Shown one piece after another: positions 27,050 to 42,058 of a DNA stretch of 64,000 nucleotides. The notes beneath the pieces are model-generated. The model made no database searches, was not told the DNA's origin, and saw nothing but the letters and a program-made list of their open reading frames with translations. The stretch's first letter is position 1. Each line of letters starts with the position of its first letter. A program made the position numbers and the translations under genes. Source of the stretch: Kofleriaceae bacterium (GTDB lineage Bacteria > Myxococcota_A > Polyangia > Haliangiales > Haliangiaceae); the NCBI GenBank assembly GCA_965215005.1, contig CBDCCZ010000009.1, positions 1 to 64,000 on the forward strand, read 5' to 3'.

Positions 27050-30000
27050 TTACGCCGCGGGAATGCGAAACGAGAAGGTAGCGCCTTTGCCTAGCTCGCT
27101 CGTGACCCAGATCGTGCCGCCGTGGCGAGTGACAATTTCGCGGCTGATATAGAGGCCGAGACCGATGCCACTCGAGCGCTGCTCGCCGGCGCCTTGGGCG
27201 TACTTCTCGAAGAGGCGTGCGCGAATGTCTTCGCTCATACCGGGGCCGTTGTCGCGGACGTCGACCCGCACGTAAAGGCGGGTGACGTCGCTGTCGACGA
27301 CGAGCGGCGACCAGGCGGCGTCGCCGCGAGCCAAGGGCAAGGGCGCGTCAGGGTCATCTTCGGAGAGTCGTTCGGTGCGGACGCTGATGGCGATAGCGCC
27401 GTCGGTGGGGGTGAACTTGACCGCGTTGTTGAGGATGTTCGACAGAACCTGAGCGATGCGATCGGGATTGCCGAGAGCGGTGGTGGCGAGACGGGAGGTG
27501 TCGGCGCGAATGTCGATGCGCTTGTGCTCACAAACCGGGCGGTACGTATCGACGACGTCGCGCAGGAGCTCGGCCATGTCGAACGGAGCCAGCGACCACT
27601 CGACGTTGCCGGTTTCGTGGCGAGACAGCTCGAGGACGTTGTCGACCAAGCGGCGCAGACGCTCGGCGTCGCGGCGAATGCGGGTGAATAGCTCTTCGGC
27701 TTCCATGCCGAGCGCACGCATCTCTTCATCACTTTGGCCGATATCGGCGTAGCCGAGAATGCCGGCTAGCGGGTTGCGAATCTCGTGGGCGAGGATCGCT
27801 ACGAGCTCGCTCTTGCGCTTCTCTTCGACCAAGAGGCGCGAGTTTTCGATTGCAAGCGCGACCTGCGCCGCAAACGCCTCGAGCAAGGTCAAGTCGACAT
27901 CATGCTCTTCGAAGGCGAGACGGCGGCTGTCGATGTAGATGATGCCGATGATGCGGCCGTGAGCGCGCAGCGGCGCGCACATGATCTGCCGAAGTCCCAA
28001 GGCCACCACGCTCTTCTGTTCGCGCAGCTCATCTTCGTCGGCGATGTCGGCGACGCTCACGGCTTCTCCCGAGCCGGCGACGCGACGCACGATGGTGCCC
28101 GAGAACTCGGCTTCGTCGCGGGCGAACCCCCTGGCGCCGGGACGCAGCCGGCGCAAGCGCTCGCGTGGTCGACCGGAATCGTCCAAGAGCAGCACGAAGC
28201 CGCGCTCGAAGCGCGTAAGCGCCAAGATTTTGTCGAGCGCAATTTCGAGCAGCCGCTCGACCTCGACGTTTGCTACCGCTTGCGTGAGCTCGAGCAAGAG
28301 GTCGAGACCGCGGCGGCGCAGGCCGCGTGCAGAACGGGCGCTTCGCACGCTGCTGATGGCGCCCAGCGACGCCCCCAATGCGCGCTGTCGTGCCCGCGCG
28401 GCGGTGAGATCCCAACGCGCTCCGAGCGCCGCGAACGCTTCGATGGCAACGGCGATAGTCTGGGTTGCCGCGTCGAGATCGCCACGAGCTGCGGCGATCT
28501 CGGCAGCTTCCATGTCGACTTTTGCGCCCTCGTAGCGGGCGCCCAGGCTGCTGATGAGCTCGCGCGCGCGATCGATGAACCACGCAGCCGAGTCGCGGTC
28601 GCCCTGCAGGCGCAGCGCGTGCGCCACAACGCGGTGCAGAATGCCTTCTTCGAGCCGCGTGCCGGCGTCTTTGGCTTCGCGAGCGGCGTCGATGGCGGCA
28701 TCGAGAGCAACCTCGATGCGCCCCGCGGCGATGTCGAGCTCGCACATCCGCCGCCGCGTCTCGATGGTGTCCTCGCGCGCGCCGATGTGCTCGAACCGCT
28801 GCATGGCGCTCTCGAAGCAGTCGCGAGCTTGGCTGAGCTCGCCCATGCGGAACAACGTCTCGCCGCGGTTGCCGAGGATCATCGCCGCCATATGCGCGTG
28901 ACCGGTCTTGTCGGCGACTCGTGCCGCGCGCTCGAAGGAGGCCAACGCATCGCCATGCTGCCCCAAGTCGCGATACAGCGACCCGAGGTTGTTTAGCGCA
29001 TTCACCAGCTCAGATTGTTCACCTTGGCGCTCGCACAGGCGGCGGAAGCGCTCCCAAGAGACACGTGCTCGCTCCCAGTCGCCTTGGAAGTAACAGGCGG
29101 CGCCGAGGTTGTTGAGGGAGCGTGCAGCTTGCTCGATGTGGCCCAGCCGCTCGACGACAGCGATGGCTTTCTCGAGCGCTTCGATGGCGCGCGCGTAGTC
29201 GCCGGCGTGAATCGCGGCGCGGCCAGTCTCGTGCAGCACGCCGGCGGTGAGTAGCTCATCGCCCACCGCTTCGGCGTGAGCGAGCGCGACGTCGAGCTGC
29301 TCGAGCGCGGCGCGGGTGTCGCCTTGATAGATATCGACCGCCGCACGCAATCGGCCGAGCTCGGCAGCGGTCTCGCGATCGCCGGTGCTCTGCGCGATTA
29401 CTAGCCCCGCGACCGTGTGCTCCATGGCGGCTTTGTAGTCGGCGCGATACATCAGCACCCAACCGATGCGCAAGTGACAACGAGCTTCCTCGGTCACCAG
29501 TCGATGGGCTCGCGCTTCGCCCAAGGCTGCCATCAGCGTGGCCAGTGCGGTGTCGCCCTCGCCGCGCCGTCGCTGTAGCTCGCCGAGACGAAGCGCGACG
29601 CGGACTCGCGCGGCCGGCAGCTGCGTCGTTGCCAGCGCACGCTCATAGCTCGTGCACGCATCGTCGGTATCGCCGATGAGGCTTTGCAGATCTCCGAGGC
29701 GCTCGTCGACGAGAGCGGCCTCGGCCGAATCGTGAATCTGCGGCCGAACGCGTTGGTACCACTGCAGGGACCCGTAGTGGTCGTAGCTCTGGGCGTGGCC
29801 CTTTGCCGCCGCCAGCCCATACGACACCGAGCGCTCGTCATCGCCAATCGCTTGGTAGTGTCGGGCCAGCTGCGCGGCAACTTCGACGCGCGCGGCGGGA
29901 CCGCGAGCTTCGAGCACGGCAGCGGCGCGGCGATGTAGCTCGAGCCTCTGCTCGACGTCGAGCTCGTCATACAGCACGCTCGCCAAGCCGTGCTGCGCGA

Positions 30001-31873
30001 AGCGAAACGCACCGGTCGCGGCATCGCCGGCCAAGACGTGGGCGCGCGCCGCTTCGGCGAGCGCTGCATCCGCGTCGTCATCCGCACCGCCAAGAAGCGC
30101 CGCCGCGGTGTCGCGATCGAAGCTATCGCCTAGCACCGCAGCGACCTCGAGCGCGCGCCGCGCCGCCGGCGGCAGGGCCTGAGCACGCGCATGTGCTGCC
30201 GCCAGCGCGTCGCTTGGAACCGGGATGGTGGGTTTGCGATGGCGCAAGATCCAGCGACCGCGCTCGCGCGCGACCTCGCCGCTGCCAACGAGCAGCTCGA
30301 GCGCTCGCGTCGCATGGGACGGATTGCCGCCAGAAGCGCGATAGAGGTCATCCGCTAGCGCATCGCCGATATCGTCGTCGAAGGCTTGCGACGCCAGCCG
30401 CACGACGCTCAAGCGATCGATGGGTGGCAGGTGCATGAGCTGTCCATGCTCGGAATCGTCGACGGCGGCATACAACCGGGCCGCGGAGTCGGCTGGATTA
30501 CCGTGCGCCTGATCGCGCGCCGCCATGACTAGCAGCACCGCGGAGTCGATGACCGAACGCGCCAAGTATGCGAGCAGCTCGGCGGTCGCTGAGTCGGCGA
30601 GGTGAGCGTCATCGACGGTGATGAGCACCGGATGCGTGGCTCCGACCTGCAGGACGACGCCGGTGACCGCTTCGGCGAGAGAAAACCGCGAGGCGCGATC
30701 GATGGGAGGCGCATCGCTGCGGCCGCCGAGCAGCGGCGCCAGCGCGGTCTGCCACTCTGGGTGTAGCTCGCGACTCGAGCCGCCAATACTGGCGAGTAGG
30801 CCACGCACCAGCATGGCGATGCCCGCGTAAGGTGTCTCGCGTCGCGTGGCCACCTCGGTGCTGAAAACCTGGCCGCCATCGAGCTGCACGTAGAGCTTGA
30901 GCTCTGCCATCAGCCGGCTCTTACCAATGCCTTCTTCGCCGATGAGCAGGGCGCACTGTCCCTGGCCGTTGCGAATCTCCGTCCATGCGCGCTGCAGCGT
31001 CGATAGATCGCGCTCACGGCCGACGAGCACCCCGCCGAGATCGATCAGTGGTCGGGTATCGGCAATCGCGAAGTGGGTGCCGGCAAGCTCGTTGATGCGC
31101 GCCAGCACCTCATCGGCAGTCTGCGGACGAGCGCCGGGCATCGGGTCGCAGAGTGCGACGACCAGCTCGGCCAGCGGTCGCGGTAGCGTCTTTACATGCG
31201 TGCAAGGGTCTTCGGGAGGTCCACGGCGTTGCGCCGCCAGTACCTCGCGCACGCTGCTGCCGCGGTACGGCAGCTCGCCGGTGAGCATTTGGTAGAGCAC
31301 GATGCCGAGCGCGTAGAGATCGGAGCGGGCATCGAGGCGACCCGCGTAGACCTCTGGCGCGGCATAGGGAAACGTGCCGCGTGCCGCTTGTGACGCGGGA
31401 TCATCGATGGCAGCGGCGAGGCCGAAGTCTGCAAGGCGCGCCGCGCGCTCGGGACTCTCTTGCAAGAGGCGCGCATCGACGAGCACGTTGGAGGGCTTGA
31501 TGTCCGCGTGCACCATCCCGCGCGCGTGAACCAGTGCGAGCGCGCGCAACATGCCGCCGATGAGGCGATAGAACAGCGGGGAGGGGACCTCGCTCACGGC
31601 TTCGAGCAGCGATGGTCCCTCGACATACTCCATGGTGAAGAAGTCGTGGCCCGAGTCGGTGAGGCCGTAATCGATGACCGAGACGATGTTGTCGTGTTTG
31701 AGTCGCGCTAACGCGAGAAACTCGCTGCGCAAGTTGGCGGCGCCGTGCGCTCGCGGCATCACCTTCATCGCGTAGATCGCACCGCTGCCGCGATCTCGGA
31801 CCCGGTTGACGACACCAAGACCACCTGAGCCGATCCGGTCCAGGACCTGGTAGCGCTCCGTGGACGAGGTCAT
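27050..31873 (-). CDS. Hybrid Ser/Thr kinase-AAA-TPR-GAF-histidine kinase
   Basis: GSGGLG, HADIKPSN, DFG, APE; GEEGIGKS; TPR array (SLNNLG); GAF (IMCAPL..IYIDS); AHEIRNPL, N box, DNGPG, GIGLGL. Confidence 0.93.
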   Translation of the reverse strand: MTSSTERYQVLDRIGSGGLGVVNRVRDRGSGAIYAMKVMPRAHGAANLRSEFLALARLKHDNIVSVIDYGLTDSGHDFFTMEYVEGPSLLEAVSEVPSPLFYRLIGGMLRALALVHARGMVHADIKPSNVLVDARLLQESPERAARLADFGLAAAIDDPASQAARGTFPYAAPEVYAGRLDARSDLYALGIVLYQMLTGELPYRGSSVREVLAAQRRGPPEDPCTHVKTLPRPLAELVVALCDPMPGARPQTADEVLARINELAGTHFAIADTRPLIDLGGVLVGRERDLSTLQRAWTEIRNGQGQCALLIGEEGIGKSRLMAELKLYVQLDGGQVFSTEVATRRETPYAGIAMLVRGLLASIGGSSRELHPEWQTALAPLLGGRSDAPPIDRASRFSLAEAVTGVVLQVGATHPVLITVDDAHLADSATAELLAYLARSVIDSAVLLVMAARDQAHGNPADSAARLYAAVDDSEHGQLMHLPPIDRLSVVRLASQAFDDDIGDALADDLYRASGGNPSHATRALELLVGSGEVARERGRWILRHRKPTIPVPSDALAAAHARAQALPPAARRALEVAAVLGDSFDRDTAAALLGGADDDADAALAEAARAHVLAGDAATGAFRFAQHGLASVLYDELDVEQRLELHRRAAAVLEARGPAARVEVAAQLARHYQAIGDDERSVSYGLAAAKGHAQSYDHYGSLQWYQRVRPQIHDSAEAALVDERLGDLQSLIGDTDDACTSYERALATTQLPAARVRVALRLGELQRRRGEGDTALATLMAALGEARAHRLVTEEARCHLRIGWVLMYRADYKAAMEHTVAGLVIAQSTGDRETAAELGRLRAAVDIYQGDTRAALEQLDVALAHAEAVGDELLTAGVLHETGRAAIHAGDYARAIEALEKAIAVVERLGHIEQAARSLNNLGAACYFQGDWERARVSWERFRRLCERQGEQSELVNALNNLGSLYRDLGQHGDALASFERAARVADKTGHAHMAAMILGNRGETLFRMGELSQARDCFESAMQRFEHIGAREDTIETRRRMCELDIAAGRIEVALDAAIDAAREAKDAGTRLEEGILHRVVAHALRLQGDRDSAAWFIDRARELISSLGARYEGAKVDMEAAEIAAARGDLDAATQTIAVAIEAFAALGARWDLTAARARQRALGASLGAISSVRSARSARGLRRRGLDLLLELTQAVANVEVERLLEIALDKILALTRFERGFVLLLDDSGRPRERLRRLRPGARGFARDEAEFSGTIVRRVAGSGEAVSVADIADEDELREQKSVVALGLRQIMCAPLRAHGRIIGIIYIDSRRLAFEEHDVDLTLLEAFAAQVALAIENSRLLVEEKRKSELVAILAHEIRNPLAGILGYADIGQSDEEMRALGMEAEELFTRIRRDAERLRRLVDNVLELSRHETGNVEWSLAPFDMAELLRDVVDTYRPVCEHKRIDIRADTSRLATTALGNPDRIAQVLSNILNNAVKFTPTDGAIAISVRTERLSEDDPDAPLPLARGDAAWSPLVVDSDVTRLYVRVDVRDNGPGMSEDIRARLFEKYAQGAGEQRSSGIGLGLYISREIVTRHGGTIWVTSELGKGATFSFRIPAA

Positions 31874-32019: not shown

Positions 32020-32050
32020 CGTGCGCGGCTCATCGGCAGTGCGGTCCCAA
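32020..32050 (+). promoter_or_regulatory. Candidate ECF promoter, copy 1 (upstream of tonB)
   Basis: CGTGCG-N16-CGGTCCCAA, 8 nt before ATG 32059. Confidence 0.6.
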
Positions 32051-32058
32051 CGGACCAG

Positions 32059-32829
32059 ATGCACAGGTGGCAATCCATAGGCGCAGCGCTGGTGGTGTCG
32101 CTGGCGGCGCACCTGGCGGTGGGTGGCCTACCTTCGTTGTGGCCGCCGGTGGAGCCGCGGCGGGATGCGCCGGAGCCGGTGCCGGTGGTGCTCGTGCCGG
32201 TGGCGATGAGCGGCGGGCAGGGCGCGGCGGCCGCGAGCGCGGTGGCAAACGCGGCAGCTAGCGATGAGCCTGCGGCGGCGCCTCGCCGAGCGTCGACGTC
32301 GGCACGGCGATCAAAAGCCCCGTCGGCGACGCCGCGACTCGAGAAGGTGCGGCAGCGCGCTCCGGTTGCGCTGGCGCCGAGCGATGCCGACGCGATGCGG
32401 CTTGGCTCGCTGGGTGGCGGAGTCTTGGGCGACGTTGGGGCACCGCCGGGAGGCATGTCTGGCGGTGGGGCCGGCGCCGGCGCGGGTGTAGGTCGTGGCT
32501 CCGGCGGCGCGGGGCGCGCAGGCGCAGGAAGCGGCGCTGGCTCAAGCGCGATCACGCGCTGGCCACGGGCGCTCAATGAACGGCGCATCGAGCTGCGGTA
32601 TCCGCCGGCGGCGCGCGCCCGCAAGCTCACCGGGCGCGTCGAGCTCGAGCTCGAGGTCGGTGCCGATGGCCGGGTGCATCACGCGTCCGTTCGTGCCGGC
32701 GCGGGTGAAGCCTTCGATAAAGCCGCGCTCGAATACGCACGCAAGCTGCGTTTCACCCCCGCGCTCGCAGGACAGCGCGCGGTAGCGGTTCGCATCGCGT
32801 GGACCGTCAACTTTCGAGGTGTTCGATGA
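32059..32829 (+). CDS. tonB: TonB family energy transducer
   Basis: SLAAH TM motif, Gly-rich spacer, YPPAAR...GRVEL...LRFTPA TonB_C. Confidence 0.85.
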   Translation: MHRWQSIGAALVVSLAAHLAVGGLPSLWPPVEPRRDAPEPVPVVLVPVAMSGGQGAAAASAVANAAASDEPAAAPRRASTSARRSKAPSATPRLEKVRQRAPVALAPSDADAMRLGSLGGGVLGDVGAPPGGMSGGGAGAGAGVGRGSGGAGRAGAGSGAGSSAITRWPRALNERRIELRYPPAARARKLTGRVELELEVGADGRVHHASVRAGAGEAFDKAALEYARKLRFTPALAGQRAVAVRIAWTVNFRGVR

Positions 32830-35297
32830 AGGCATTAACATGCGCGGCCGTAGCGCTCGCGGCGATGGCAGCGGTAGCCGAGGCGCAGCCAGTCGCTCCA
32901 GACGAAGCGCCAGTGGTCGAAGAAGCGCCGGCCGCAGACGAAGCGCCGGTCGTGGACGAGGTGCCGGTCGTTCGAAACGAGGCGCTGGTCACGCCAGCTC
33001 GGCTGCTAGCGCCGGTTGTACCGGTGTATCCATCGCTGGCCAAAGACAGCGGCCTAGAAGCCGACGTCGCCGTGCTCATCGACGTCTCGGCGACCGGAGC
33101 CGTCACAAGCGTCGTGGTCGTGGAGCCCGTCGGCAGCGGCTTCGATGAGGCCGCTCTTGCCGCGGCTCGAGCGATGCGGTTTACGCCGGCGCAGCAGGCC
33201 GGAATGCCCGTCGCCTCGCAGGTGCAACACACCTTCGCGTTCCGCAAAGAAACCGCGCCGCGCTCGCAAAAGCCGGAGCCGCAGCCCGTGCGCAGCGACG
33301 AAACGTATCGCACCGAGGTGTGGCTTGGCGGCGACGACTCCACCGTCGGCACCGTGGTGCTTTCGGAAGAAGAGCTGCGCGAGCTGCCTGGAACCCTCGG
33401 CGAGCCGATGCGCGCCGTCATGCTTTTGCCCGGCGTCACCACCTCGACGACCGGCGTGGCCTACCCGATTATTCGCGGTTCACTACCTGGCGAGTCGCAA
33501 TACGTGGTCGACGGCATCCAGGTGCCGTTGCTGTATCACTTCATGCTCGGCACGTCCGTGCTGCATCCCAACATCATCGGCGAGCTCGAATTTCATCCTG
33601 GGGGCGTTCCGGCGCAACACGGCAGGCTACTGGCAGGATTGGTGGAAGCGCATTTGGCCGACGCTCCCGTCGAGCGCAAAGACGAGGTTCGTCTCACCCT
33701 CGTCGACGTCGGTCTCTATCACGGGCAGCCCATCGGCGAGGACGCCGATCTCGTTGCCGCGGTGAAGGCAGGCACCCTTGGCGCGATCGCCTGGCTCATC
33801 GACCCCAGCATCATCGTGAGCTACGCCGACTACCAAGCGCGTTATCGGCACGATATCGGCGCGGGTCGGCTCTCGCTCACCGCCTTGGGCGCGTGGGACC
33901 TCATCAAGTTCGTGCCGAAAGACGACGAAGATACGGCGGAAGACGATCTGTGGCTTGGCTTTCACCGGCTCGATCTCCGCTATGACAGGCCCGTTGGCGC
34001 TAGCAACGTCGCCGTCGGGGTAGAGCTTGGTTACGACGCCATCGGCAGCAACTCCAATGGACGTGATGCACCCGTGGAGGGAGACCCAGATTTTCCGCCG
34101 GAGCGGCCCGATCCGAAGCTCAGCGACTGGCGAGCACGACCGCACGCACAGCTCACCTCGCGCCTCACCGATACGCTCGGAATGCGCGTGGGCGCCGACG
34201 TTTTGCTGCAGCGACCGCGGGTGCGAGGCGCTGATATCACGTCGGCCGACGAGCTCGAACCCTCGCCCTATATTGTCAAGCCGAGCTCGATTGTCACCAG
34301 CGGGGCATGGCTTGGGCTCGACTGGATCTTGGGCGCCCTGACGGTGCGGCCCGGCGTGCGCGTCGATCACTATCGAACCAACACCGACGAGGGCCGCTTC
34401 ACCGACACCACCATCGATCCGCGACTAGCCCTCGACTATCGCGTTCATCGCGACGCTACCCTCAAAGCCGCCGTAGGCGTGTATCACTCGCCGCCGCGAT
34501 TCACGCTGGTCGACAGCAGAATCACCATTGGGCCAGTACCAGCGACCGATGGCCGTGGCGCTCGCTACGGCAGCAATCGCTCGCTTCAGACCCAGCTCGG
34601 TATCGAAGCGTGGCTGGCGGACATGCAGGCCACCGCCACCGCCTTCTACCAACAGAGTGACTATGCCATTGACCTCGGCGCTCTCGATTTACCGGTCGTT
34701 CCCGACGACCGCGAGTTCTGCGACACCGGGACCTTCGTCGAGGACAGCGAGCGGGCGCGGCCCGTCGGCGTGAAGGGCCGCAGCTATGGCCTCGAGCTCA
34801 TGGGCCGGCAACCGCTCGGCGAAGAGGTGTTTGGCTGGGTTAGCTACACGTTGTCGCGCAACGAGCGCGAGGTCGCCGGAGTCGGCCGCTTTCCGACCAA
34901 CTTCGACCAGACGCACGTGCTCAATGGTGCACTGTCGTGGACGCCGAACCGCCGCTGGACCCTCGGCGTGGCAGCGCAGGTGCATAGTGGTGTGGCGGCG
35001 ACCGGTGTTATCAGCAAGCGCTGCGAGCTGTCGCTGCCGGACCAGCCTGGCTACACCTACGTCGACACGAAACCAGGCCGTGTGAACGGCGAGCGCCTGC
35101 CGTGGTTTTGGCGCGGCGACGTACGCGCCGAGCGCCACTTCGAGCTCGATGGTTGGAAGCTCCACGTCTTCTTCGAGATGATCAACGCCACGCTGCAGAC
35201 CGACTACCAAAGCTTGGAGGTCAATAACGCTGGCGAGACCAAGCCCTCGGGCTTCCCCATCGTCGTACCGATGATCGGTGCGCGCGGTGAGTTCTAA
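32826..35297 (+). CDS. TonB-dependent receptor with an N-terminal TonB_C-like domain
   Basis: Signal peptide; PVYP...GFDEAALAAARAMRFTPA; plug LPGV..IIRG; DPRL, GRSYGLEL, DQTH; terminal GARGEF; ATGA overlap. Confidence 0.88.
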   Translation: MKALTCAAVALAAMAAVAEAQPVAPDEAPVVEEAPAADEAPVVDEVPVVRNEALVTPARLLAPVVPVYPSLAKDSGLEADVAVLIDVSATGAVTSVVVVEPVGSGFDEAALAAARAMRFTPAQQAGMPVASQVQHTFAFRKETAPRSQKPEPQPVRSDETYRTEVWLGGDDSTVGTVVLSEEELRELPGTLGEPMRAVMLLPGVTTSTTGVAYPIIRGSLPGESQYVVDGIQVPLLYHFMLGTSVLHPNIIGELEFHPGGVPAQHGRLLAGLVEAHLADAPVERKDEVRLTLVDVGLYHGQPIGEDADLVAAVKAGTLGAIAWLIDPSIIVSYADYQARYRHDIGAGRLSLTALGAWDLIKFVPKDDEDTAEDDLWLGFHRLDLRYDRPVGASNVAVGVELGYDAIGSNSNGRDAPVEGDPDFPPERPDPKLSDWRARPHAQLTSRLTDTLGMRVGADVLLQRPRVRGADITSADELEPSPYIVKPSSIVTSGAWLGLDWILGALTVRPGVRVDHYRTNTDEGRFTDTTIDPRLALDYRVHRDATLKAAVGVYHSPPRFTLVDSRITIGPVPATDGRGARYGSNRSLQTQLGIEAWLADMQATATAFYQQSDYAIDLGALDLPVVPDDREFCDTGTFVEDSERARPVGVKGRSYGLELMGRQPLGEEVFGWVSYTLSRNEREVAGVGRFPTNFDQTHVLNGALSWTPNRRWTLGVAAQVHSGVAATGVISKRCELSLPDQPGYTYVDTKPGRVNGERLPWFWRGDVRAERHFELDGWKLHVFFEMINATLQTDYQSLEVNNAGETKPSGFPIVVPMIGARGEF

Positions 35298-35330
35298 GGC
35301 GACTTAAGGCGAACCAACTAGGAGTAATCG

Positions 35331-35954
35331 GTGAACCTCGAAATGCAAATGTCTGCGTTCGCACTACACGGCGCTGCCTGGGTGCTTTGGCTGCTCGTGG
35401 CACTGTCGGTGCTGTCTCTTGCCATCATTTTGGAACGGGCCGTGTTCTATTGGCGCCGTCGCGTGAACATCGATTCGTTGATTGCCCGCATGGAGCGTCC
35501 GCTGCGTGCCGGCGAGCTGCCGCGGCTGTCGCCAGCACGGTCGATGGAGCACTGGGTTGCCGGTGCTGGGTTGGGCCAGCTCTCGCACGGCGCCGAGCGT
35601 GTCGCCGATGCGATGCGCGCCGAGGAGCTGCGCACCCGCGCTGACTATGAGCGCGGGCTGTCGATTCTCGCGACGCTCGGCGCCAACGCACCGTTCGTTG
35701 GCCTGTTCGGCACCGTGCTCGGGGTGATCCGCGCGTTCGCTGACCTCTCCCGCGGCACCGCCGCCGGCGCTAGCGCGGTGATGGCCGGCATCTCTGAGGC
35801 GCTAGTCGCTACCGCGGTGGGCCTTGCCGTCGCGCTGCCGGCCGTCGCTGCGTACAACATCTTTCAGCGGCGCCTGTCGCGCTCGAGCGCCAACTCCGAG
35901 CGGCTGCTCCATCACTTGGTCGCCTACGCGCGCAGCTACCCGAGGAGTCATTGA
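35331..35954 (+). CDS. exbB: MotA/TolQ/ExbB family protein
   Basis: APFVGLFGTVLGVIRAF, GISEALVATAVGL. Confidence 0.92.
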   Translation: MNLEMQMSAFALHGAAWVLWLLVALSVLSLAIILERAVFYWRRRVNIDSLIARMERPLRAGELPRLSPARSMEHWVAGAGLGQLSHGAERVADAMRAEELRTRADYERGLSILATLGANAPFVGLFGTVLGVIRAFADLSRGTAAGASAVMAGISEALVATAVGLAVALPAVAAYNIFQRRLSRSSANSERLLHHLVAYARSYPRSH

Positions 35955-36379
35955 TGGGCGCCGGTGCGGGCTCGCGCGGTGGCGGTCCCATCGCCGACAT
36001 CAACGTCACGCCGCTGGTCGACGTGATGCTCGTCCTCCTCATCGTGTTCATGGTCAGCGCCGAGCTCATTGACCGCGGGGCACTGCCGGTGACGATGCCG
36101 ACGGCGGCGAGCGCTTCTGCGCCGCCGGTCTCGCCCATCGGTGTGACCGTGACGGTCGACGGCAGCATCGCCATCGGGGAGCGGGTGTGGCCCGACGCGG
36201 ACCAGGCGGCCGCGGCCATCGTCGCCGAGCAGTCCCGCGAGCCCCGGCCGGTTCTGCTCACCGCCGATAAGGATGCGCGCTATCAGCAGCTGGTGACCGT
36301 GCTCGAGGCGCTGAGCGCCGGCGGTGTCACCGAGCTCGGCCTCGCGGTTCGCGTCGATGACGGCCAAGGTGGCTCATGA
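35951..36379 (+). CDS. exbD: ExbD/TolR family protein
   Basis: INVTPLVDVMLVLLIVFMV; ADKDARY. Confidence 0.9.
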   Translation: MMGAGAGSRGGGPIADINVTPLVDVMLVLLIVFMVSAELIDRGALPVTMPTAASASAPPVSPIGVTVTVDGSIAIGERVWPDADQAAAAIVAEQSREPRPVLLTADKDARYQQLVTVLEALSAGGVTELGLAVRVDDGQGGS

Positions 36380-37176
36380 GGCGGAAGCGGATGATTCTCG
36401 ACGGCCTCCAGCCGCCGCGCTACCCTCGAAGCTCGCTGATGCGTCGCCGCTGGATCAGGCCCGAGATGTTGCTCGGGGCACTCGCGATGCTCGGCAGCGG
36501 GTGTGAACCGCTCGCCGATGACACGTACGAAGGCGAGCCGCTCCTCGTCGTCAACGGCTACTTCGTTGACGACGCTGGCGAGTACGCTTCTGGAGGTGAC
36601 CTACAGCCCGTGATTTGGTGGATACCGCCTCCCGACTCGACGGGCGAGTTCGTGTTCGTGGATTCTGGTTACTCGAATGGGTCTGACTTCAACCTCTGGT
36701 TGTCGATTTTGTTCGAGCCCTGGCTCGAGGTAATCGCTCCCTTAGCAACTCCTTTTGGCGCTGACGCTTCTGCTCCGCTGGCGTTTGGGCAAATCGTGGG
36801 AGTGCCCCGCTCGAGTTGGGGCCCCGCTAGAAGAGAGTTCTACCCGCGAGAGGAGTGGCCTGCGCGGATCGCTGCCGTCGTAGAGGGCTATGTCGTTGTG
36901 TCTGTGGGAGAGCGGCCGGGGAGTCCAACGGTGGATGCGAGCGTTCGATTGTTCGGCATCTCCATGGCCCCAGGCATCTATCTTGCGTCGGTGACGCCCC
37001 GCGATGCCGACGAGTTGGCGCAGGCAGAGGCCTGCGAAGCGGCGGCCACGAGCTTGGAAGCGTGGGTGGCGTGTCCCAGCCGGTGGCCCGCGATCACGCC
37101 GCTCAGGTCCGGTAGTGTGGAGGCGCGGAAACTGGGAAGGCTCGAGGGAGTTCCTGCGTTTTCGTGGCCGCAGTAG
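36376..37176 (+). CDS. Hypothetical lipoprotein
   Basis: Lipobox LGSGC followed by YEGEPL; ATGA-coupled to exbD, though the true start may be further downstream. Confidence 0.65.
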   Translation: MRRKRMILDGLQPPRYPRSSLMRRRWIRPEMLLGALAMLGSGCEPLADDTYEGEPLLVVNGYFVDDAGEYASGGDLQPVIWWIPPPDSTGEFVFVDSGYSNGSDFNLWLSILFEPWLEVIAPLATPFGADASAPLAFGQIVGVPRSSWGPARREFYPREEWPARIAAVVEGYVVVSVGERPGSPTVDASVRLFGISMAPGIYLASVTPRDADELAQAEACEAAATSLEAWVACPSRWPAITPLRSGSVEARKLGRLEGVPAFSWPQ

Positions 37177-37191: not shown

Positions 37192-37222
37192 CGTGCGGGA
37201 TTATCAGCGACTGCGGTTCTAA
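37192..37222 (+). promoter_or_regulatory. Candidate ECF promoter, copy 2 (autoregulatory position)
   Basis: CGTGCG-N16-CGGTTCTAA, 6 nt before GTG 37229. Confidence 0.7.
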
Positions 37223-37228
37223 CCAACA

Positions 37229-37762
37229 GTGCCCGTGACACCGCAGCAGTCTCGCCCGACCCAATCGACCGAGGAGCCAGCACCCGCCGTGGATGTTGCT
37301 GCCGCGTATCGGTCGTACGGACACTCTGTGCTTCGCCGTGCCCGGCAGCTGCTCGGCGACGAGGACGAGGCCGCCGACATCATGCAAGACGTGTTTTCGT
37401 CGCTCTGGCACCGTCCAGAGCAATACGGCGGCCGCGCGGCGCTCTCGACCTGGCTGTACCGCGCGACGACGAACCTGTGTCTCAACCGGATGCGAAACCG
37501 CAGCAATCGCGATCGACTGCTGGTAGAGAAGGTCGCCCCGGCCATCGAGCGAGAAGGCGCCTCGGCCGCGGCTGAGACCCTGGCGCGGCAAGTCCTCAGT
37601 CAAATGCCAGTGGACCTGGCGCAAGCGGCTATTCACTACTTCATGGACGGAATGACCCATGAAGAAGTCGCCCAAGTGATGGATTGCTCACCCCGTCACG
37701 TCGGAAACCTGATCAAGCGAGCACAACGATGGGCGCAACAGCGGGAGGTTGCCCAGCCATGA
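37229..37762 (+). CDS. ECF-type RNA polymerase sigma factor
   Basis: Sigma2 EAADIMQDVF...TWLYRATTNLCLNRMR; sigma4 DGMTHEEVAQVMDCS. Confidence 0.92.
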   Translation: MPVTPQQSRPTQSTEEPAPAVDVAAAYRSYGHSVLRRARQLLGDEDEAADIMQDVFSSLWHRPEQYGGRAALSTWLYRATTNLCLNRMRNRSNRDRLLVEKVAPAIEREGASAAAETLARQVLSQMPVDLAQAAIHYFMDGMTHEEVAQVMDCSPRHVGNLIKRAQRWAQQREVAQP

Positions 37763-38505
37763 CTCAAAACCAACTTCAGGAGTATTGCGTTTCGAATCTG
37801 CAAATTGACCGCTGGCTCGTCGATGAGCTGGAGGCCGATGAAAAGCGGCGCTTCGATGAGCACTGCGCGATGTGCTTGGCGTGTCGTCGCCGGCGCGGTG
37901 AGCTCGCGGCGACGGCGCGCGCGTTCGCTGCTGCGTCGCCGCCGCTCGAGGTGTTGTCGGCAGCACCACCGCGCACGGCTCGACGCTGGTCGCGCGCGGC
38001 TGCAGGCGCGGCCGCGGCTCTGGCCATGGCCGCGGCGGCGCTGCTACTGATGCGCCCCGAGGGGGCGGGAGCTCCGCCACAGGTAGCGTCGTCAACGCGA
38101 AGCAAGGGCAGCGAGGCCCGGTTAGAGGTCGTTCTCGCGTCTGAGGGAGCACAGCGGCTGATCGATAGCGGCGCCGTCGTCCATCCGGGAGACCTGCTCC
38201 AGCTCCGCTATACTAGTCCTCGCAGCGGATACCTGGCGGTGTTAGGGCGCGATCAGACGGGAATGATCAGCGCGTATTACGAGGCCGATGGTCATGCTGC
38301 AGCCATCGTGGCCGGTTCTGAGATTGCTCTTTCTAACGCAATCGAGCTCGATGACACTTTAGGAACGGAAACGCTGTACGGGTTCTTCTGTGCCGATCCC
38401 GTGGCCATCAAGGCCTTGCGGGGCGTTCTCGAAGCACAGCCAGCCGAGCGAGTGGTGCCAACATCATGCGAGCTGCAGGAACTATCCTTCGACAAGCAGC
38501 GCTGA
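37759..38505 (+). CDS. Zinc-binding transmembrane anti-sigma factor with a DUF4384-like extracytoplasmic domain
   Basis: HCAMCLAC (HxxxCxxC), one TM helix, PGDLLQLRY..GYLAVLG..IELDDTLGTE; ATGA overlap with the sigma gene. Confidence 0.82.
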   Translation: MTQNQLQEYCVSNLQIDRWLVDELEADEKRRFDEHCAMCLACRRRRGELAATARAFAAASPPLEVLSAAPPRTARRWSRAAAGAAAALAMAAAALLLMRPEGAGAPPQVASSTRSKGSEARLEVVLASEGAQRLIDSGAVVHPGDLLQLRYTSPRSGYLAVLGRDQTGMISAYYEADGHAAAIVAGSEIALSNAIELDDTLGTETLYGFFCADPVAIKALRGVLEAQPAERVVPTSCELQELSFDKQR

Positions 38506-40076
38506 CCGCCGCCGTTGCCGCGGTGCTGGTTTCCATGAGCGGTTCGGCGCACGCCGACGCCCCGCGGTATGCGGTAGTCGTTGGCAACAACGATGGCGCG
38601 CCCTCACAGGGCAAGCTCGAATACGCGGAAAGCGATGCGCTCAAGATGTTCGAGGTATTGCAGGGCATCGGCGACTTCGCTGCCGCAAACACGCTGCTGC
38701 TCCGGGGCGCCAACGCTAGCGCTGTCAATGAAGCGGTTCTAACGGTCAATGAGCGCATTCGCGGCCTCGATCCAGCAGAGCGCGAGCGCTCGATGCTCGT
38801 TGTCTACTATTCGGGTCACGGTGATGCGAGTGCGCTGCACCTCGGCGACAGCACGTTCCCGCTTCGTCGGCTCGAGAAGCTCGTGAGCGGCTCCGCTGCC
38901 GCGGTGCGGGTGTTGATACTCGATTCCTGTCGTTCAGGTGCCGCCACGCGGGTCAAGGGCGGTCGGCTGGTGCCTTCGGTGCAAGTGCAACTGCGCTCGC
39001 GGCTTTCGAGTGAAGGGTTGATCATCCTCACGGCCAGCGCAGCCGGAGAAGATGCGCAAGAGTCAGATGAGCTGCAAGGGTCATTCTTCACGCACTATCT
39101 GGTTTCCGGACTTCTCGGCGCCGCCGATCGCGACGGCGACAACCACGTTGGCCTGCAAGAGGCCTACGACTACGCGTACCAGCACACGCTGCGAGCCTCG
39201 AGCCGAACGCTGCAAGGGGTTCAGCATCCGACCTTCCGCTTCGACACCCGCGGTACCAAAGATATCGCCTTCACCCGCGTTGCGCGTCCGACGCAGCGAG
39301 CGCAAATCGAGCTCCCCAAGGGTTATAGTTATCTACTGCTGCGTTCGGGACACCGAGGAGCGGTGGTGGCCGAGGTTGATGCCACCGACCCGGTACGGAC
39401 GCTGAGTCTGTCGCCAGGACGTTACTTCGTGCGCGTCCGTGCACGGGACTATTTGCTCGAAGGCCAGGTCGAGCTGCGCGCTGGCGTTGCCACCCGCGTC
39501 AACCACGAAGAATTCCGCCGCACCGACTATGCGCGCTTGGTTCGAAAGGGCGGAAGTGATCTTTCGCTGGTACACGGGCCTCGCTTGGCGTTCAGCTATC
39601 GCTCCGCGCTTTTGGGTGAGGGCGAGGCTACGGGTCTCTCCTTGTCCTACGTCTTCGAGAGTCGCTATGCCACGGTGGCGCCGCGACTCTCCTTCCGCGA
39701 AGAAGACATCACGACGCAAGTGACCTCATCGGCGCTGGGCGAGATGAGTGCAGATGTATTTCTCGGACATTCTTTGGATGTGCCGTGGCGAACGACGCTC
39801 GAAGTGGGCGCTGTCATCGGCGGAGCGCTCCTGTCGCAGAAGTATGACCAACCGAGTACGACGGTCACACCCGATCGGCTATCGAGCACGGTCTTCTTGG
39901 GCACTGAAGCCACAGTGTTGCGCGAGCTGCCTGGCGGAACGTACCTAAGTATCACCCTTGGCTCACGCTCTTACTTCTTTGGCACCATCGGCGCCGCCAA
40001 TAGCTCCGCTTCAACCGGATCCCGAGAGCAGCATTTCGCCTGGATCCTCGACTTTGGTATCGGCAAGCGCTGGTAG
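38466..40076 (+). CDS. Exported caspase-family (peptidase C14) protein with a predicted C-terminal beta-barrel
   Basis: Signal peptide ending AHA; YAVVVGNN, YYSGHG (His), ILDSCRSG (Cys), SFFTHYL, QHP; amphipathic strands ending DFGIGKRW. Confidence 0.88.
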   Translation: MRAAGTILRQAALTAAVAAVLVSMSGSAHADAPRYAVVVGNNDGAPSQGKLEYAESDALKMFEVLQGIGDFAAANTLLLRGANASAVNEAVLTVNERIRGLDPAERERSMLVVYYSGHGDASALHLGDSTFPLRRLEKLVSGSAAAVRVLILDSCRSGAATRVKGGRLVPSVQVQLRSRLSSEGLIILTASAAGEDAQESDELQGSFFTHYLVSGLLGAADRDGDNHVGLQEAYDYAYQHTLRASSRTLQGVQHPTFRFDTRGTKDIAFTRVARPTQRAQIELPKGYSYLLLRSGHRGAVVAEVDATDPVRTLSLSPGRYFVRVRARDYLLEGQVELRAGVATRVNHEEFRRTDYARLVRKGGSDLSLVHGPRLAFSYRSALLGEGEATGLSLSYVFESRYATVAPRLSFREEDITTQVTSSALGEMSADVFLGHSLDVPWRTTLEVGAVIGGALLSQKYDQPSTTVTPDRLSSTVFLGTEATVLRELPGGTYLSITLGSRSYFFGTIGAANSSASTGSREQHFAWILDFGIGKRW

Positions 40077-40132: not shown

Positions 40133-40163
40133 CGTGCGTGAGCCGCGCCTGCGACGGTTCTAA
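40133..40163 (+). promoter_or_regulatory. Candidate ECF promoter, copy 3
   Basis: CGTGCG-N16-CGGTTCTAA upstream of lipoprotein paralog 1. Confidence 0.7.
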
Positions 40164-40239: not shown

Positions 40240-40623
40240 ATGCAATACAAGCTGATCTCGATGCTGCTCGTTTCGTGCAGCGTGCTGACTGCAGCTTGCG
40301 ACAATACCTGTGAGTTGTCAAAAAGCCAGAACACAATGGTCGAAGCGGTGGATGACACCTACGAGTTCACGTGGACCGATGACAACGTGACGGAGCTGAT
40401 TGTATCGCTCCAGACCTCCGAAACCGAGGGGGAGGTCGTGTGGTGGATCGCAGCGGCACCCGGAAATACGCTGCCTTCAGGCCTTCGCTATGGAGAGGTG
40501 CCTCCCGGCGCGACGGTTACGTCTGCCGCCGAAGATATCGTCGAAGGCGGCAAGTATGGAGTGTCGGTTCTTATGGACAATGGCGACCAGAGCTGCTTCT
40601 TGGATAGCGATTTTTCGAGCTGA
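40240..40623 (+). CDS. Small lipoprotein, paralog 1
   Basis: AGGAG RBS, lipobox LTAAC, TYEFTWTDDNV, LPSGLRYG. Confidence 0.85.
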   Translation: MQYKLISMLLVSCSVLTAACDNTCELSKSQNTMVEAVDDTYEFTWTDDNVTELIVSLQTSETEGEVVWWIAAAPGNTLPSGLRYGEVPPGATVTSAAEDIVEGGKYGVSVLMDNGDQSCFLDSDFSS

Positions 40624-40789: not shown

Positions 40790-41052
40790 GCCAGAGCCAT
40801 CGCCAGCACCAACGCCGGCGATGGCAGGTGCGCGAAGACGGCTGGGAATTGAGATCGTCGTGCGCAAGGTGCGCCCGCGACGGTTCAAAGCAAAGGACGT
40901 GGTCGGTGGTCGACGAAGCGGCTGATCATTGCCCAAATTCCATTTCACCTAACCCCAGCTCCGAGACTGTCTCACCTAGCGTCGGAGTATAGACATGCGT
41001 TGTGAATTTGTTGTGGGAGAGAGCTGCGGAATCTGTTTTTTATCGCAGTTGT

Positions 41053-41083
41053 CGTGCGCGAGGACCGCGCACGGCGGTTCTAA
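41053..41083 (+). promoter_or_regulatory. Candidate ECF promoter, copy 4
   Basis: CGTGCG-N16-CGGTTCTAA upstream of lipoprotein paralog 2. Confidence 0.7.
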
Positions 41084-41153: not shown

Positions 41154-41549
41154 ATGAACATGCGTTACAAACTTGCCCTGATTCTGATTGCTATTTTGTT
41201 TTCGACCGTATTGACTGCAGGCTGCGATGGTACCTGCGAGTTGACGGCTAGTCAGGATGTTGCTGTCAAAGCGGTTGATGATACATATGAGTTCACGTGG
41301 ACCGATGACAACGTCACAGCGTTGCGCGTCACGCTTTGGACCTCAGATGACGAAGGAACCGTGGTGTGGAGCGTTGCAGCGGCCCCGGGAAAGAAGCTGC
41401 CTTCCGGAATGCGTTACGGACAGGTGCCTGAGGGCGCGACTGCGTCGACCGCCGCCAAGGATCTGGAAACAGGTGGCAGATACACGACGGTGATCGAGAT
41501 GGAAGAAGGCGGGGAGAGCTGCGTTGCGGAAAGCGACTTTTCCCGCTGA
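41154..41549 (+). CDS. Small lipoprotein, paralog 2
   Basis: Lipobox LTAGC, TYEFTWTDDNV, LPSGMRYG. Confidence 0.85.
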   Translation: MNMRYKLALILIAILFSTVLTAGCDGTCELTASQDVAVKAVDDTYEFTWTDDNVTALRVTLWTSDDEGTVVWSVAAAPGKKLPSGMRYGQVPEGATASTAAKDLETGGRYTTVIEMEEGGESCVAESDFSR

Positions 41550-41605: not shown

Positions 41606-41647
41606 CTCGGAACGTTCACTAAGCCGATGTCTATAGGAGAATATCAG

Positions 41648-42058
41648 ATGCATATCAAGAACATACTGGTCCTTGTGGGGCTCGTCGCTTCCTGCGCAGG
41701 ATCCGCGGGTTGCGTCGAAGAATCCTGCGGGTGGGAAGCTGATCAAGAGCTCGCGGTCACGAAAGTCGACGGGACGTACGAGTTCACGTGGACGGAGGAC
41801 AACGTCGTCAAGATGACAATCAACGATGTTGGCGTCAGACAAGATCCAAACGAATCGGTGGACGAGGCTGTAGTTTGGCGCGTCGAAGCGGCGCCCGGTG
41901 CCAAACTTCCTTCGGGAGTTCGTTACGGGGTCGTGCCGGCCGGCGCAACCGCGCCAACTGCCGCCAAGGACCTCCAGCCAAGTGGCAATTACCGTGCGTT
42001 GGTGACGATGGAAGATCACGGCGAGGAGTGCTACGGGCACGTCGAGTTCTCGAAGTGA
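41648..42058 (+). CDS. Small lipoprotein, paralog 3
   Basis: AGGAG RBS, lipobox-like VASC/SAGC, TYEFTWTEDNV, LPSGVRYG. Confidence 0.85.
   Translation: MHIKNILVLVGLVASCAGSAGCVEESCGWEADQELAVTKVDGTYEFTWTEDNVVKMTINDVGVRQDPNESVDEAVVWRVEAAPGAKLPSGVRYGVVPAGATAPTAAKDLQPSGNYRALVTMEDHGEECYGHVEFSK

Follow-up and report, generated by a model that had tools for sequence, protein, structure and literature searches.

The window, i.e., the whole 64,000-nucleotide stretch of Kofleriaceae DNA that was analyzed, carries three overlapping genes that encode: (i) an ECF sigma factor, (ii) a candidate membrane anti-sigma factor and (iii) an exported C14 caspase-fold protease (Table 1). The genes overlap, as originally predicted. 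The ECF and anti-sigma genes share an ATGA, and the caspase reading frame runs over the end of the anti-sigma gene by 40 nt. The arrangement recurs among relatives, with the caspase adjoining the anti-sigma at 189 of 191 anti-sigma loci, including six in the order caspase-sigma-anti-sigma. Six anti-sigmas that seemed to be orphans in a search for negative controls have a caspase upstream of the sigma gene. One locus (L224) was considered as a sigma/anti-sigma fusion and set aside, as Pfam gave no sigma match. The anti-sigma profile matches 216 of the 401 genomes sampled from the phylum (weak matches counted in), and 475 caspase relatives are confirmed in the species collection.

Table 1. Features of the sigma/anti-sigma/caspase locus and its surroundings (positions in the window).
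Feature	Position	Strand	Basis or remark
Weaker promoter-like copy, just ahead of the ATG at 32059	32021..32049	+	rank 6 on window + strand; 222 genome-wide
Conserved partner lipoprotein, family without Pfam or NCBIfam match	36439..37176 (ORF open from 36376)	+	
Candidate ECF promoter GTGCG-N16-CGGTTCTA	37193..37221	+	7 nt ahead of ECF start codon; exact copy
ECF sigma factor, 177 aa	37229..37762	+	Pfam Sigma70_r2 55.7 bits, Sigma70_r4_2 31 bits; TIGR02937 74.8 bits, cut-off 42.9
Single-pass anti-sigma candidate, 248 aa: zinc-type N-terminal domain, TM helix, flexible linker, DUF4384-type Ig-like periplasmic domain	37759..38505	+	
HxxxCxxC zinc motif, aa 35-42 (His35, Cys39, Cys42)	37861..37884	+	sequence
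Predicted anti-sigma TM helix, hydrophobic, aa 80-98	37996..38052	+	sequence; model helix 75-97
Anti-sigma linker site TRSKG; predicted scissile bond Lys116-Gly117	38095..38109	+	
Periplasmic Ig-like beta-sandwich (DUF4384 type), aa 121-246	38119..38496	+	AF2 model
Exported C14 caspase-fold protease, 536 aa: signal peptide, protease domain, Ig-like domain, outer-membrane barrel	38466..40076	+	Pfam C14, AF2 model, Foldseek
Predicted Sec signal peptide: basic N-terminus, hydrophobic core, A-H-A cleavage motif	38466..38555	+	read from sequence
Asp57, predicted S1-pocket acid, helix 1	38634..38636	+	aligns with metacaspase helix-1 Asp
SGHG: pocket Ser116 and catalytic His118	38811..38822	+	Ser in 190/190
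LDSC: pocket Asp153 and catalytic Cys155	38919..38930	+	Asp in 190/190
Caspase self-site TRVKG, Lys164 = Cys+9; predicted auto-inhibitory or self-processing site	38946..38960	+	
Caspase anchor-release site LVRKG, Lys361; between Ig-like domain and barrel	39537..39551	+	predicted
Predicted eight-stranded outer-membrane beta-barrel	39567..40067	+	eight strands in AF2 model
Candidate ECF promoter ahead of lipoprotein gene 1	40134..40162	+	exact copy; rank 4, window scan
Three paralogous small lipoprotein genes, candidate ECF targets	40240-40623, 41154-41549, 41627-42058	+	ORFs
Promoter-like copy, intergenic, no clear ORF follows	40860..40888	+	1 mismatch
Candidate ECF promoter ahead of lipoprotein genes 2 and 3	41054..41082	+	exact copy; rank 1, window scan

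The ECF protein has regions 2 and 4 only, is shorter than 200 aa, and its Pfam and TIGR02937 matches all lie over cut-off. Its neighbor has the features of the zinc-binding class I anti-sigma factors (an HxxxCxxC motif, one TM helix and a gene at +1 of the ECF) and is a candidate member that is predicted to bind and inhibit the cognate ECF. The zinc motif is retained in 80-82% of 141 non-redundant homologs. While the window anti-sigma itself has no Pfam match, the DUF4384 (PF14326) profile included, DUF4384 matches 15 of 22 aligned homologs (best E 4e-7) and zf-HC2 matches 8 of the 22. The anti-sigma profile gives weak matches (E 0.002-0.08) to the N-termini of DdvA, ChrR and RsiW. In the AF2 model (mean pLDDT 85), the periplasmic domain is a beta-sandwich that returns only generic Ig or macroglobulin domains in a fold search (Z 8.4-8.9, rmsd 2.2-3.5 Å, 88-112 residues) and unnamed clusters, from Myxococcota and Spirochaetota, in an Atlas search.

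The caspase scores 40.3 bits with Peptidase_C14 (PF00656; cut-off 21.4), and 31 of 31 homologs also match this profile. The signal peptide and intact His/Cys dyad (His118 and Cys155) noted earlier both hold up, the former as a prediction with equivalent leaders in homologs; the dyad is intact in 189/189 caspases of the window (Lys) family and 74/74 of a sister (Arg) family, with no catalytically dead, dyad-less caspase in these 189 + 74 sequences. An acidic S1 pocket for Arg/Lys appears to be present, composed of Asp57, Asp153 and Ser116 (assigned from alignment and position), and the enzyme is predicted to cut after Lys/Arg and to process itself. Asp57, the counterpart of the metacaspase helix-1 pocket residue TbMCA2 Asp95 (PMC4357240), is Asp in 187 and Glu in 3 of 190 caspases. 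The AF2 model (residues 24-536, mean pLDDT 80) ends in a predicted outer-membrane barrel of the OmpA/OmpX type, for which the top Foldseek matches are NspA (E 1e-7), OmpA, OmpX and Ail. The C-terminal residue is Trp, and F, L or W occupies this position in 107 of 133 complete homologs; OMP_b-brl matches 3/31 and EF-hand_5 matches 6/31 homologs. CHAT and TPR domains have no match in the window caspase or these 31 homologs.

The genome has three exact copies of the candidate promoter GTGCG-N16-CGGTTCTA, which lie together in a stretch of 4 kb. A bipartite motif of this kind is recovered unseeded in 32 of 36 relatives, upstream of the partner lipoprotein, and the matrix built from relatives puts four window sites at the top of the window scan; genome-wide the same matrix is not sharp, with window sites at ranks 14, 21, 25, 132 and 222 of 12.4 million positions. 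The search directly upstream of the ECF gene in relatives was weak or negative and, when unseeded, picked up the coding region of the lipoprotein gene that lies upstream, and no sigma-70 consensus promoter was found. Of the 117 clade-1 loci that span 6.5 kb or more, 75 encode a member of the partner lipoprotein family, and the window member matches a profile built without it (E 1e-13) as the single match in the genome. The three small lipoproteins downstream cluster only among themselves, with no Pfam or NCBIfam match and no counterpart in the loci fetched from relatives. The ATG at 32059 opens a TonB/TonB-dependent receptor/ExbB/ExbD/lipoprotein run; a TonB-dependent receptor and ExbB were conserved neighbors at 0/79 loci.

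The original prediction centered on a T-R-x-K-G motif common to the anti-sigma and the caspase, with a related VRKG (39540-39551) ahead of the barrel. The motif coordinates are right, and so is the setting of each site: Lys116 of the anti-sigma ends a low-confidence linker (aa 102-115) that follows the TM helix, with the beta-sandwich directly after; Lys164 of the caspase lies nine residues past the catalytic Cys in a loop of pLDDT <50; and Lys361 lies at the border of the Ig-like domain and barrel. All three are within low-confidence loops at domain borders of the AF2 models. The part of the motif that stands is its [K/R]-G core, which is common to all three sites, while the full T-R-x-K-G is not, as just 58 of 191 anti-sigmas have Thr at P4, and Val takes P3 of the pre-barrel site in 132/184. 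What the sites share is a basic residue and then a small one, mostly K-G.

T-R-x-K-G occurs four times in the 941,331 residues of plausible plus-strand ORFs of the genome, these two copies included, and is expected by chance at ~0.001-0.002 per protein. The motif was picked after the fact; thus, the decisive question is whether it is conserved, and it is, with [K/R]-G kept in both the anti-sigma and the caspase of homolog pairs. The anti-sigma site is Lys in 186 and Arg in 5 of 191 loci and is followed by Gly in 181 and by a small residue (G, A, S or T) in 191/191; no other [KR]G column is conserved in this protein. It lies 6-31 residues past the TM helix. The caspase self-site is Lys in 189/189 (Cys+9 in 183, Cys+8 in 6) with Gly next in 188. 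The pre-barrel site is Lys in 161, Arg in 22 and Ala in 1 of 184 scored, with Gly next in 179. Among 80 loci chosen by motif-free caspase patterns, K-G or R-G is found in 79/79 of the anti-sigmas present.

A purely structural role, in which the anti-sigma K-G caps the Ig-like domain and resembles the caspase sites by coincidence, would account for a Lys that is nearly fixed relative to the first strand (5-6 residues in 131/141) and that could pair with the conserved acids Asp165, Asp198 and Glu204 of the domain. This role is very improbable, however, as [KR]G precedes the domain in 0/16 non-operon DUF4384 proteins versus 7/8 operon-type ones from the same search (the 16 controls are distant, E 4e-4 to 4e-10, with motif position judged by eye), the residues ahead of the Lys are disordered in the model, and the residue at the site changes along with the caspase family and pocket.

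This switch is seen in the sister family, where all three sites change from Lys to Arg together: the caspase self-site is Arg in 73/74, the pre-anchor site is Arg in 72/74 even though the C-terminal anchor differs, and the anti-sigma site is Arg in 65, Lys in 5 and misaligned in 1 of 71. The residue after the self-site is not small in 14/71 of this family. Discordant loci are found in both families, with anti-sigma Arg at 5/189 Lys-family loci and anti-sigma Lys with caspase Arg at 4/71 Arg-family loci. On the tree, the co-switch is one well-supported event (one independent pair on starred branches); of five independent pairs selected by the anti-sigma trait, four show no change at the caspase self-site and, thus, a sign test cannot reach significance. 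Covariation of a P3 Arg between partners of the Lys family (103/16/11/9, raw Fisher p 0.002, 139 non-redundant pairs) is lost under independent pairs (median p 1). Matching of cognate versus shuffled pairs is 337 versus 317 ± 6 by a statistic that ignores kinship and is, therefore, given no weight.

The pocket offers a candidate basis for the switch. The type II metacaspase AtMC4 binds P1 Lys via Ser(His-2) (Ser84, by a hydrogen bond) and Asp(Cys-2) (bioRxiv 2020.03.09.983940); these two residues also hold its linker Lys, and both are invariant in window-family caspases. The linker Lys of AtMC4 lies 86 residues past the Cys, compared with 9 in the window caspase. Ser(His-2) is present in 190/190 Lys-family caspases versus 13/86 of the Arg family. 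Within the Arg family, the anti-sigma site is Lys in 5/11 where the caspase retains this Ser versus 0/60 where it does not; the five loci with Lys fall in two lineages on the tree. From these alignments, Ser(His-2) should set the Lys versus Arg preference of the caspase.

The pocket also bears on whether the sites are cut constitutively in maturation, or by another Lys/Arg-specific periplasmic protease, with the caspase a product of the regulon and not its gate. The promoter-like site ahead of the ECF gene would place the caspase under ECF control, the anti-sigma site tolerates Lys or Arg, and the two anti-sigmas with no caspase in the 7 kb fetched (L148 and L174) both retain T-R-x-K-G. A shared housekeeping enzyme, however, leaves unexplained why the type of site follows the caspase family and pocket Ser, and at least one genome (G327) has the Lys and Arg families side by side; such a route is considered quite unlikely.

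The [K/R]-G site in both proteins, switching together in the sister family, indicates that the caspase likely frees itself and then cuts the anti-sigma. The caspase is, thus, probably a self-releasing site-1 protease that is dedicated to the membrane anti-sigma encoded beside it; we infer the cleavage, its order and its effect on sigma from the conservation described above. At rest, Lys164 would be held in the caspase's own basic-residue pocket. An envelope signal, probably passed on by the barrel or the partner lipoprotein, would trigger cuts at Lys164 and Lys361, the latter allowing the protease to leave the outer membrane. The freed protease may then dock on the Ig-like domain of the anti-sigma and cut Lys116-Gly117, after which RseP would cut the membrane stub and release the ECF. 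RseP of Myxococcus xanthus degrades an anti-sigma that lacks its periplasmic domain (PMC11506125), and the genome has one RseP-like ORF, found by motif and of putative activity. The released ECF would transcribe from the GTGCG-N16-CGGTTCTA promoters its own operon, as positive feedback, and the nearby lipoprotein genes. The role of the module would be regulatory rather than cell death.

The same conservation would be expected if Lys116 of the anti-sigma entered the S1 pocket as an inhibitor or bait that is cut slowly or never, with sigma freed by binding or by another protease. Co-conservation and the pocket link fit such an inhibitor equally well, and there are precedents: PCi of Haliangium ochraceum is a substrate of PCaspase as well as its inhibitor (bioRxiv 2023.06.23.546230), and AtMC4 at rest keeps a Lys uncut in its pocket (bioRxiv 2020.03.09.983940). 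Against it, Lys116 is in an unstructured linker of variable length beside the TM helix, the usual place of a site-1 cut, the residue that follows is invariably small, and the caspase and anti-sigma are predicted to reside in different membranes. An inhibitory Lys116 is therefore viewed as unlikely.

Site-1 cleavage of an anti-sigma by an operon-encoded caspase was not found in print, while the operon itself was noted in 2012. Sigma-70/metacaspase operons were described from Myxococcus xanthus, Anaeromyxobacter, Haliangium, Sorangium, Ralstonia and Fibrobacter (Asplund-Samuelsson et al. 2012, PMC3501461), and share with the window a conserved sigma factor and C14 pair in myxobacteria. Sorangium cellulosum So ce56 has the full triad (locus L102) and, thus, the 2012 operons are probably the same loci. 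The main text of that paper discusses autolysis; the terms 'anti-sigma', 'cleavage site' and 'zinc' do not occur in it. A possible link to M. xanthus ActD was dropped after a literature search gave no support.

Of the characterized systems, the type III-E CRISPR Csx29/Csx30/CASP-sigma module is alike in that a caspase-fold protease cuts an anti-sigma that docks by its C-terminal domain; this domain of Csx30 is required for binding (PMC10028731), and one group of such domains is DUF4384 (bioRxiv 2022.08.17.504292). By contrast, Csx29 is a CHAT and not a C14 protease, is cytoplasmic and RNA-triggered through Cas7-11, and cuts Csx30 at residue 427, a site at which no residue proved essential on mutagenesis; the Csx29/Csx30 descriptions consulted include no TM-spanning RIP step or outer-membrane anchor. 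The window protease is C14, with no CHAT/TPR or PADLOC match, and does not belong to the Craspases (TPR-CHAT tied to Cas7-11). DdvS/DdvA of M. xanthus is likewise an ECF with a zinc-binding single-pass anti-sigma, for which a caspase-fold site-1 cut is proposed in the linker past the TM helix, followed by RseP (PMC11506125); among PDB sequences, the anti-sigma profile matches the DdvA N-terminus best (E 0.002). In DdvA, however, the protease (TPR-CHAT) is within the anti-sigma itself and self-cleavage is only proposed (PMC11506125), whereas the window encodes the protease apart from the anti-sigma, as a C14 protein for which an outer-membrane anchor of its own is predicted. The periplasmic part of the window anti-sigma is a 126-residue Ig-like domain with no TPR-CHAT, which places it outside the DdvA type.

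The SAVED-CHAT/PCaspase/PCi/PCc-sigma system of H. ochraceum also relies on a cleavage-activated myxobacterial C14 caspase, encoded near a sigma factor and the protein that it both cuts and is inhibited by (bioRxiv 2023.06.23.546230). It differs in that PCaspase is activated by a second protease and cA3, has broad specificity and acts in abortive infection; the terms 'signal peptide' and 'periplasm' do not occur in the preprint text available. These nearest studied systems (PCaspase, Csx29 and DdvA) are all linked to defense, as would suit an anti-phage or programmed-death function in which the activated caspase is a broad toxic protease and the anti-sigma one substrate among many. Such a function is highly improbable for the window module, as the enzyme is predicted to be extracytoplasmic, PADLOC finds no match for the three window proteins or two homologs, and the flanking genes seen encode lipoproteins and TonB systems. 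SAVED and CHAT, which together with the kinase PCk mark the gene cluster of the PCaspase cascade, have no match among 14 proteins scanned around the locus.

Basic specificity has other precedents. AtMC4 and the orthocaspase MaOC1 share P1 specificity for basic residues and activation by self-processing (bioRxiv 2020.03.09.983940; PMC7475262), with no outer-membrane barrel or anti-sigma substrate in the descriptions consulted, and cleavage at conserved R-G motifs, as putative sites, has been reported for a bacterial C14 caspase (bioRxiv 2025.11.14.688446). The predicted logic follows DegS/RseP/RseA-sigmaE, in which a site-1 cut strips the periplasmic domain and a site-2 protease frees sigma (PMC10028731, PMC11506125); the site-1 enzyme here would instead be a clan CD cysteine protease that is outer-membrane-anchored, encoded in the same operon and carries copies of its substrate site. 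ECF216 (ECF 2.0, PMC7826278) is set beside the window ECF by description only: it is from Myxococcales and has a zinc-finger single-TM anti-sigma at +1, with carboxypeptidase-regulatory-like and EF-hand domains in its context (compare the EF-hand_5 matches among the caspases), and its entry names no caspase, DUF4384 or promoter motif.

Bacterial caspase substrates, and any job of these enzymes besides killing cells, are an open question of long standing. The module makes the question directly testable, as it points to a candidate substrate with its predicted scissile bond (Lys116-Gly117), to two predicted self-sites, to the pocket residue that should choose between Lys and Arg and to a promoter that could drive a reporter. 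If the proposed mechanism is true, the site-1 proteases gain an outer-membrane-anchored cysteine protease of clan CD, and an orthogonal sigma switch gated by a protease becomes available. More tentatively, the module may represent a widespread trans-envelope system in which an outer-membrane-tethered caspase serves as a lipoprotein-gated receptor-protease, frees itself at its two self-sites, traverses the periplasm and then cuts the anti-sigma at the same kind of site, with the Lys- and Arg-specific versions forming insulated parallel channels in one cell, and with kinship to DUF4384-type Csx30 modules recruited by CRISPR. If this broader reading is true, most myxobacterial caspases would acquire a defined non-death job.

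The ECF sigma factor, the anti-sigma factor and the exported C14 caspase lie, together with their three motifs, where the original prediction placed them, and the triad occurs once in the genome. The ECF and C14 domains both score above curated profile cut-offs. The anti-sigma of the window has no match in Pfam; among aligned homologues, Pfam assigns DUF4384 to 15 of 22 and zf-HC2 to 8 of 22. The anti-sigma model consists of an N-terminal helical bundle, a helix (residues 75-97), a disordered stretch (102-115) and a beta-sandwich from residue 121, which places Lys116 of the TRSKG site where the linker ends. The model of the caspase, covering residues 24-536, includes (i) the protease domain, (ii) Lys164 of the TRVKG self-site in a low-confidence loop, (iii) an Ig-like domain and (iv) eight C-terminal strands, with NspA, OmpA, OmpX and Ail as best structural matches. 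Given the leader peptide and the even number of barrel strands, the protease would face the periplasm, as is expected in general of such barrels. The relatives of the caspase are from myxobacteria. Residues 221-225 of the caspase form a conserved EF-hand-like D-x-[DNS]-x-[DN] loop (Asp221 in 188 of 190), a possible Ca2+ site.

Features of the window, with the sigma/anti-sigma/caspase module
Feature	Position	Strand
Hybrid signalling protein, 1607 aa (Ser/Thr kinase, AAA ATPase, TPR, GAF, histidine kinase), divergent from TonB run	27050-31873	-
TonB run: TonB C-terminal protein, TonB-dependent receptor with N-terminal TonB_C domain, ExbB, ExbD, then partner lipoprotein	32059-36379	+
Partner lipoprotein	36439-37176	
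ECF sigma factor	37229-37762	+
Anti-sigma factor	37759-38505	+
Exported C14 caspase	38466-40076	+
EF-hand-like loop of caspase	39123-39140	+
Promoter-like copy	40860-40888	+
Promoter pattern, 1 mismatch	59308-59336	+

Homologous loci were drawn from four sources: the best 30 for the anti-sigma among 147 genomes of the order (102 genomes matched; the tally counts two unpublished genomes, from which no loci were drawn), the best 30 for the anti-sigma profile in the phylum (216 of 401 genomes matched), the 80 top-ranked among 475 caspase loci of a species collection, and 60 regions hand-picked from match lists. Removal of 8 duplicates from 200 loci left 192, with an anti-sigma in 191, a caspase in 190 and both in 189. 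At one locus (L115) the caspase lies at a contig edge. The gene order is caspase-sigma-anti-sigma at six loci. This order is seen in a subfamily (L141-L146, L235) in which the anti-sigma has no zinc motif, the self-site is one residue nearer the Cys, a TPR-like insert precedes the barrel and the downstream lipoprotein is different. A second conserved gene family, one member of which resembles a lipoprotein, is found downstream of the caspase at 10 loci (L149, L154, L159, L168, L175, L189-L191 and two more). At L224/L231 (G262:C7), a single 522-aa ORF resembling a sigma factor and zinc domain joined to a TM helix and DUF4384 precedes a divergent caspase that has K-G at the two sites. In this ORF, Pfam detects DUF4384 weakly and no sigma domain.

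Co-conservation of the sites in homologue pairs, proposed as a check, is found throughout: the basic residue is kept in 191 of 191 anti-sigmas and, after the Cys, in 189 of 189 caspases. The anti-sigma site is Lys in 186 and Arg in 5 loci, followed by Gly (181), Ala (6), Thr (2) or Ser (2), while the caspase site after the Cys is Lys in 189/189, followed by Gly in 188. The pre-barrel site (VRKG, Lys361) is Lys in 161, Arg in 22 and Ala in 1 of the 184 scored. The proposed shared T-R-x-K-G motif survives in its [K/R]-G core only, since some of the sites lack Thr at P4 or Arg at P3. Lys116, at the end of a gap-rich linker, ranks second in conservation among the anti-sigma columns, with 97% over 141 non-redundant rows, and no other [KR]G column of that protein is conserved. 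The scores are 99% and 96% for the two caspase sites and 41-57% for the three columns that come next. Selection bias is limited, as loci chosen by motif-free caspase patterns have K-G or R-G in the anti-sigma in 79 of 79. A search for the DUF4384 family gave 30 loci (6 without a core-profile match, 16 outside such operons and 8 operon-type). Among these, [KR]G ahead of the domain, read by eye, is found in 0/16 non-operon proteins, which are distant relatives, and in 7/8 operon-type proteins, the eighth having K-A. Set beside these counts, a purely structural role of [K/R]-G is very improbable. Non-operon DUF4384 domains at L208, L210 and L219, some fused to caspase-like domains, have R-G after, not before, the domain.

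The catalytic dyad is intact in 189/189 caspases, leaving no dead enzyme to serve as a control. At two loci (L148, L174) the anti-sigma has no caspase within the 7 kb fetched, and both retain the motif. Cutting of the sites constitutively or by a third party is quite unlikely.

A sister family, here termed the Arg family, was reached through a weak match (L247) in which the caspase site and the anti-sigma site both read R-G. A search seeded with this locus gave 93 caspase loci, 71 with an anti-sigma and complete loop. The self-site is Arg in 73 of 74 aligned caspases, the pre-anchor site is Arg in 72 of 74 despite a different C-terminal anchor, and the anti-sigma site is Arg in 65 of 71 (Lys in 5, misaligned in 1); thus, all three sites changed together. 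In AtMC4, P1 Lys is held by Ser(His-2) and Asp(Cys-2) (bioRxiv 2020.03.09.983940). The equivalent pocket Ser is present in 190/190 caspases of the window's own (Lys) family versus 13/86 of the Arg family, and Lys at the Arg-family anti-sigma site occurs only with the pocket Ser (5/11 vs 0/60). As all five of these loci, which fall in two lineages on the tree, keep the Ser, the anti-sigma residue is tied to the enzyme pocket and not only to the self-site. That the periplasmic part of the anti-sigma acts instead as an inhibitor or bait of the caspase is unlikely, if the least so among the alternatives. Arg-family caspases (L281, L292, L314, L320) have helical or hydrophobic segments in place of the eight-stranded barrel region and a pocket helix with an invariant D-D-D.

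On a tree of 119 caspases built with the motif loop left out (59 non-redundant Arg-family and 60 Lys-family members, 55 of the latter randomly drawn), the K/R co-switch is represented by one starred independent pair. Five starred pairs have different anti-sigma sites; in four of them the caspase self-site is the same, and a sign test, for which at least six pairs would be required, cannot reach significance. L257 (K/K), at the base of the Arg family without resolved branching, may represent the ancestral state. Covariation at P3 inside the Lys family failed the independent-pairs tree test.

Based on these sequence patterns, the caspase is probably a self-releasing site-1 protease of the anti-sigma. 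In the resting state, Lys164 would inhibit the caspase's own pocket; a signal would trigger cuts at 164 and 361, upon which the caspase would leave the outer membrane. Such release would be needed because the anti-sigma site is a median of 17 residues from the inner-membrane helix. The freed caspase would then cut the anti-sigma at 116, an RseP step would follow (the genome has one RseP-like ORF), and the released ECF would exert positive feedback on its own module. The signal could enter through the barrel, through the partner lipoprotein or as Ca2+ bound by the D-x-[DNS]-x-[DN] loop.

The partner lipoprotein, encoded just upstream, belongs to an unnamed family that is single-copy in the genome. 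Among Lys-family loci that span 6.5 kb or more, 75 of 117 (41/74 non-redundant) have a member; among Arg-family loci of 5.5 kb or more, 0/18 do. A candidate promoter, GTGCG-N16-CGGTTCTA, lies ahead of the ECF and of two lipoprotein genes downstream. When one mismatch is allowed, it has 5 matches in the window versus 0.1 expected; its only 3 exact copies in 6.2 Mb are all here, two of them in a shared duplicated upstream region. The motif ends at 37221, 7 nt ahead of the ECF GTG, which suggests a leaderless transcript. Searches for the promoter directly ahead of the ECF gave weak results in relatives. An unseeded search upstream of the partner lipoprotein recovered GTGCC-N16-CGGTCCtAA in 32 of 36 relatives (log-likelihood 298 vs 95 and 105 in shuffles). 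With the relatives' matrix, the four top-ranking sites of the window's + strand are, in order, 41053, 40859, 37192 and 40133, and 32020, ahead of the TonB run, comes sixth; genome-wide, the window sites rank 14, 21, 25, 132 and 222 of 12.4 million. Thus, the likely regulon is the module itself and envelope lipoproteins. The TonB run, preceded by a weak motif copy, is a weaker candidate; as a conserved neighbour of the module it is found in 0/79 loci. A death or defence role of the module is most improbable. The copy at 40860-40888 has no clear ORF in the next 150 nt and could be a small RNA promoter or a vestige of a fourth lipoprotein copy that was lost.

A sigma-metacaspase operon was noted in 2012, with no anti-sigma or sites in the main text (PMC3501461). 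That a caspase-fold protein cuts an anti-sigma has been demonstrated with Csx29/Csx30 (PMC10028731) and proposed in the case of DdvA (PMC11506125), and some Csx30 tails are DUF4384 (bioRxiv 2022.08.17.504292). PCaspase substrates include a sigma factor and an inhibitor (bioRxiv 2023.06.23.546230), and LcCaspase has putative R-G sites (bioRxiv 2025.11.14.688446). The ECF216 and ECF25 group descriptions fit the window's ECF in part, as compared by description (PMC7826278). A description of the mechanism of this sigma/anti-sigma/caspase module was not found in the mainly open-access literature searched. The module would resemble Csx29/Csx30 and DdvA in logic but is a member of neither; it is a real, conserved feature with a probable role in regulated proteolysis of the anti-sigma.
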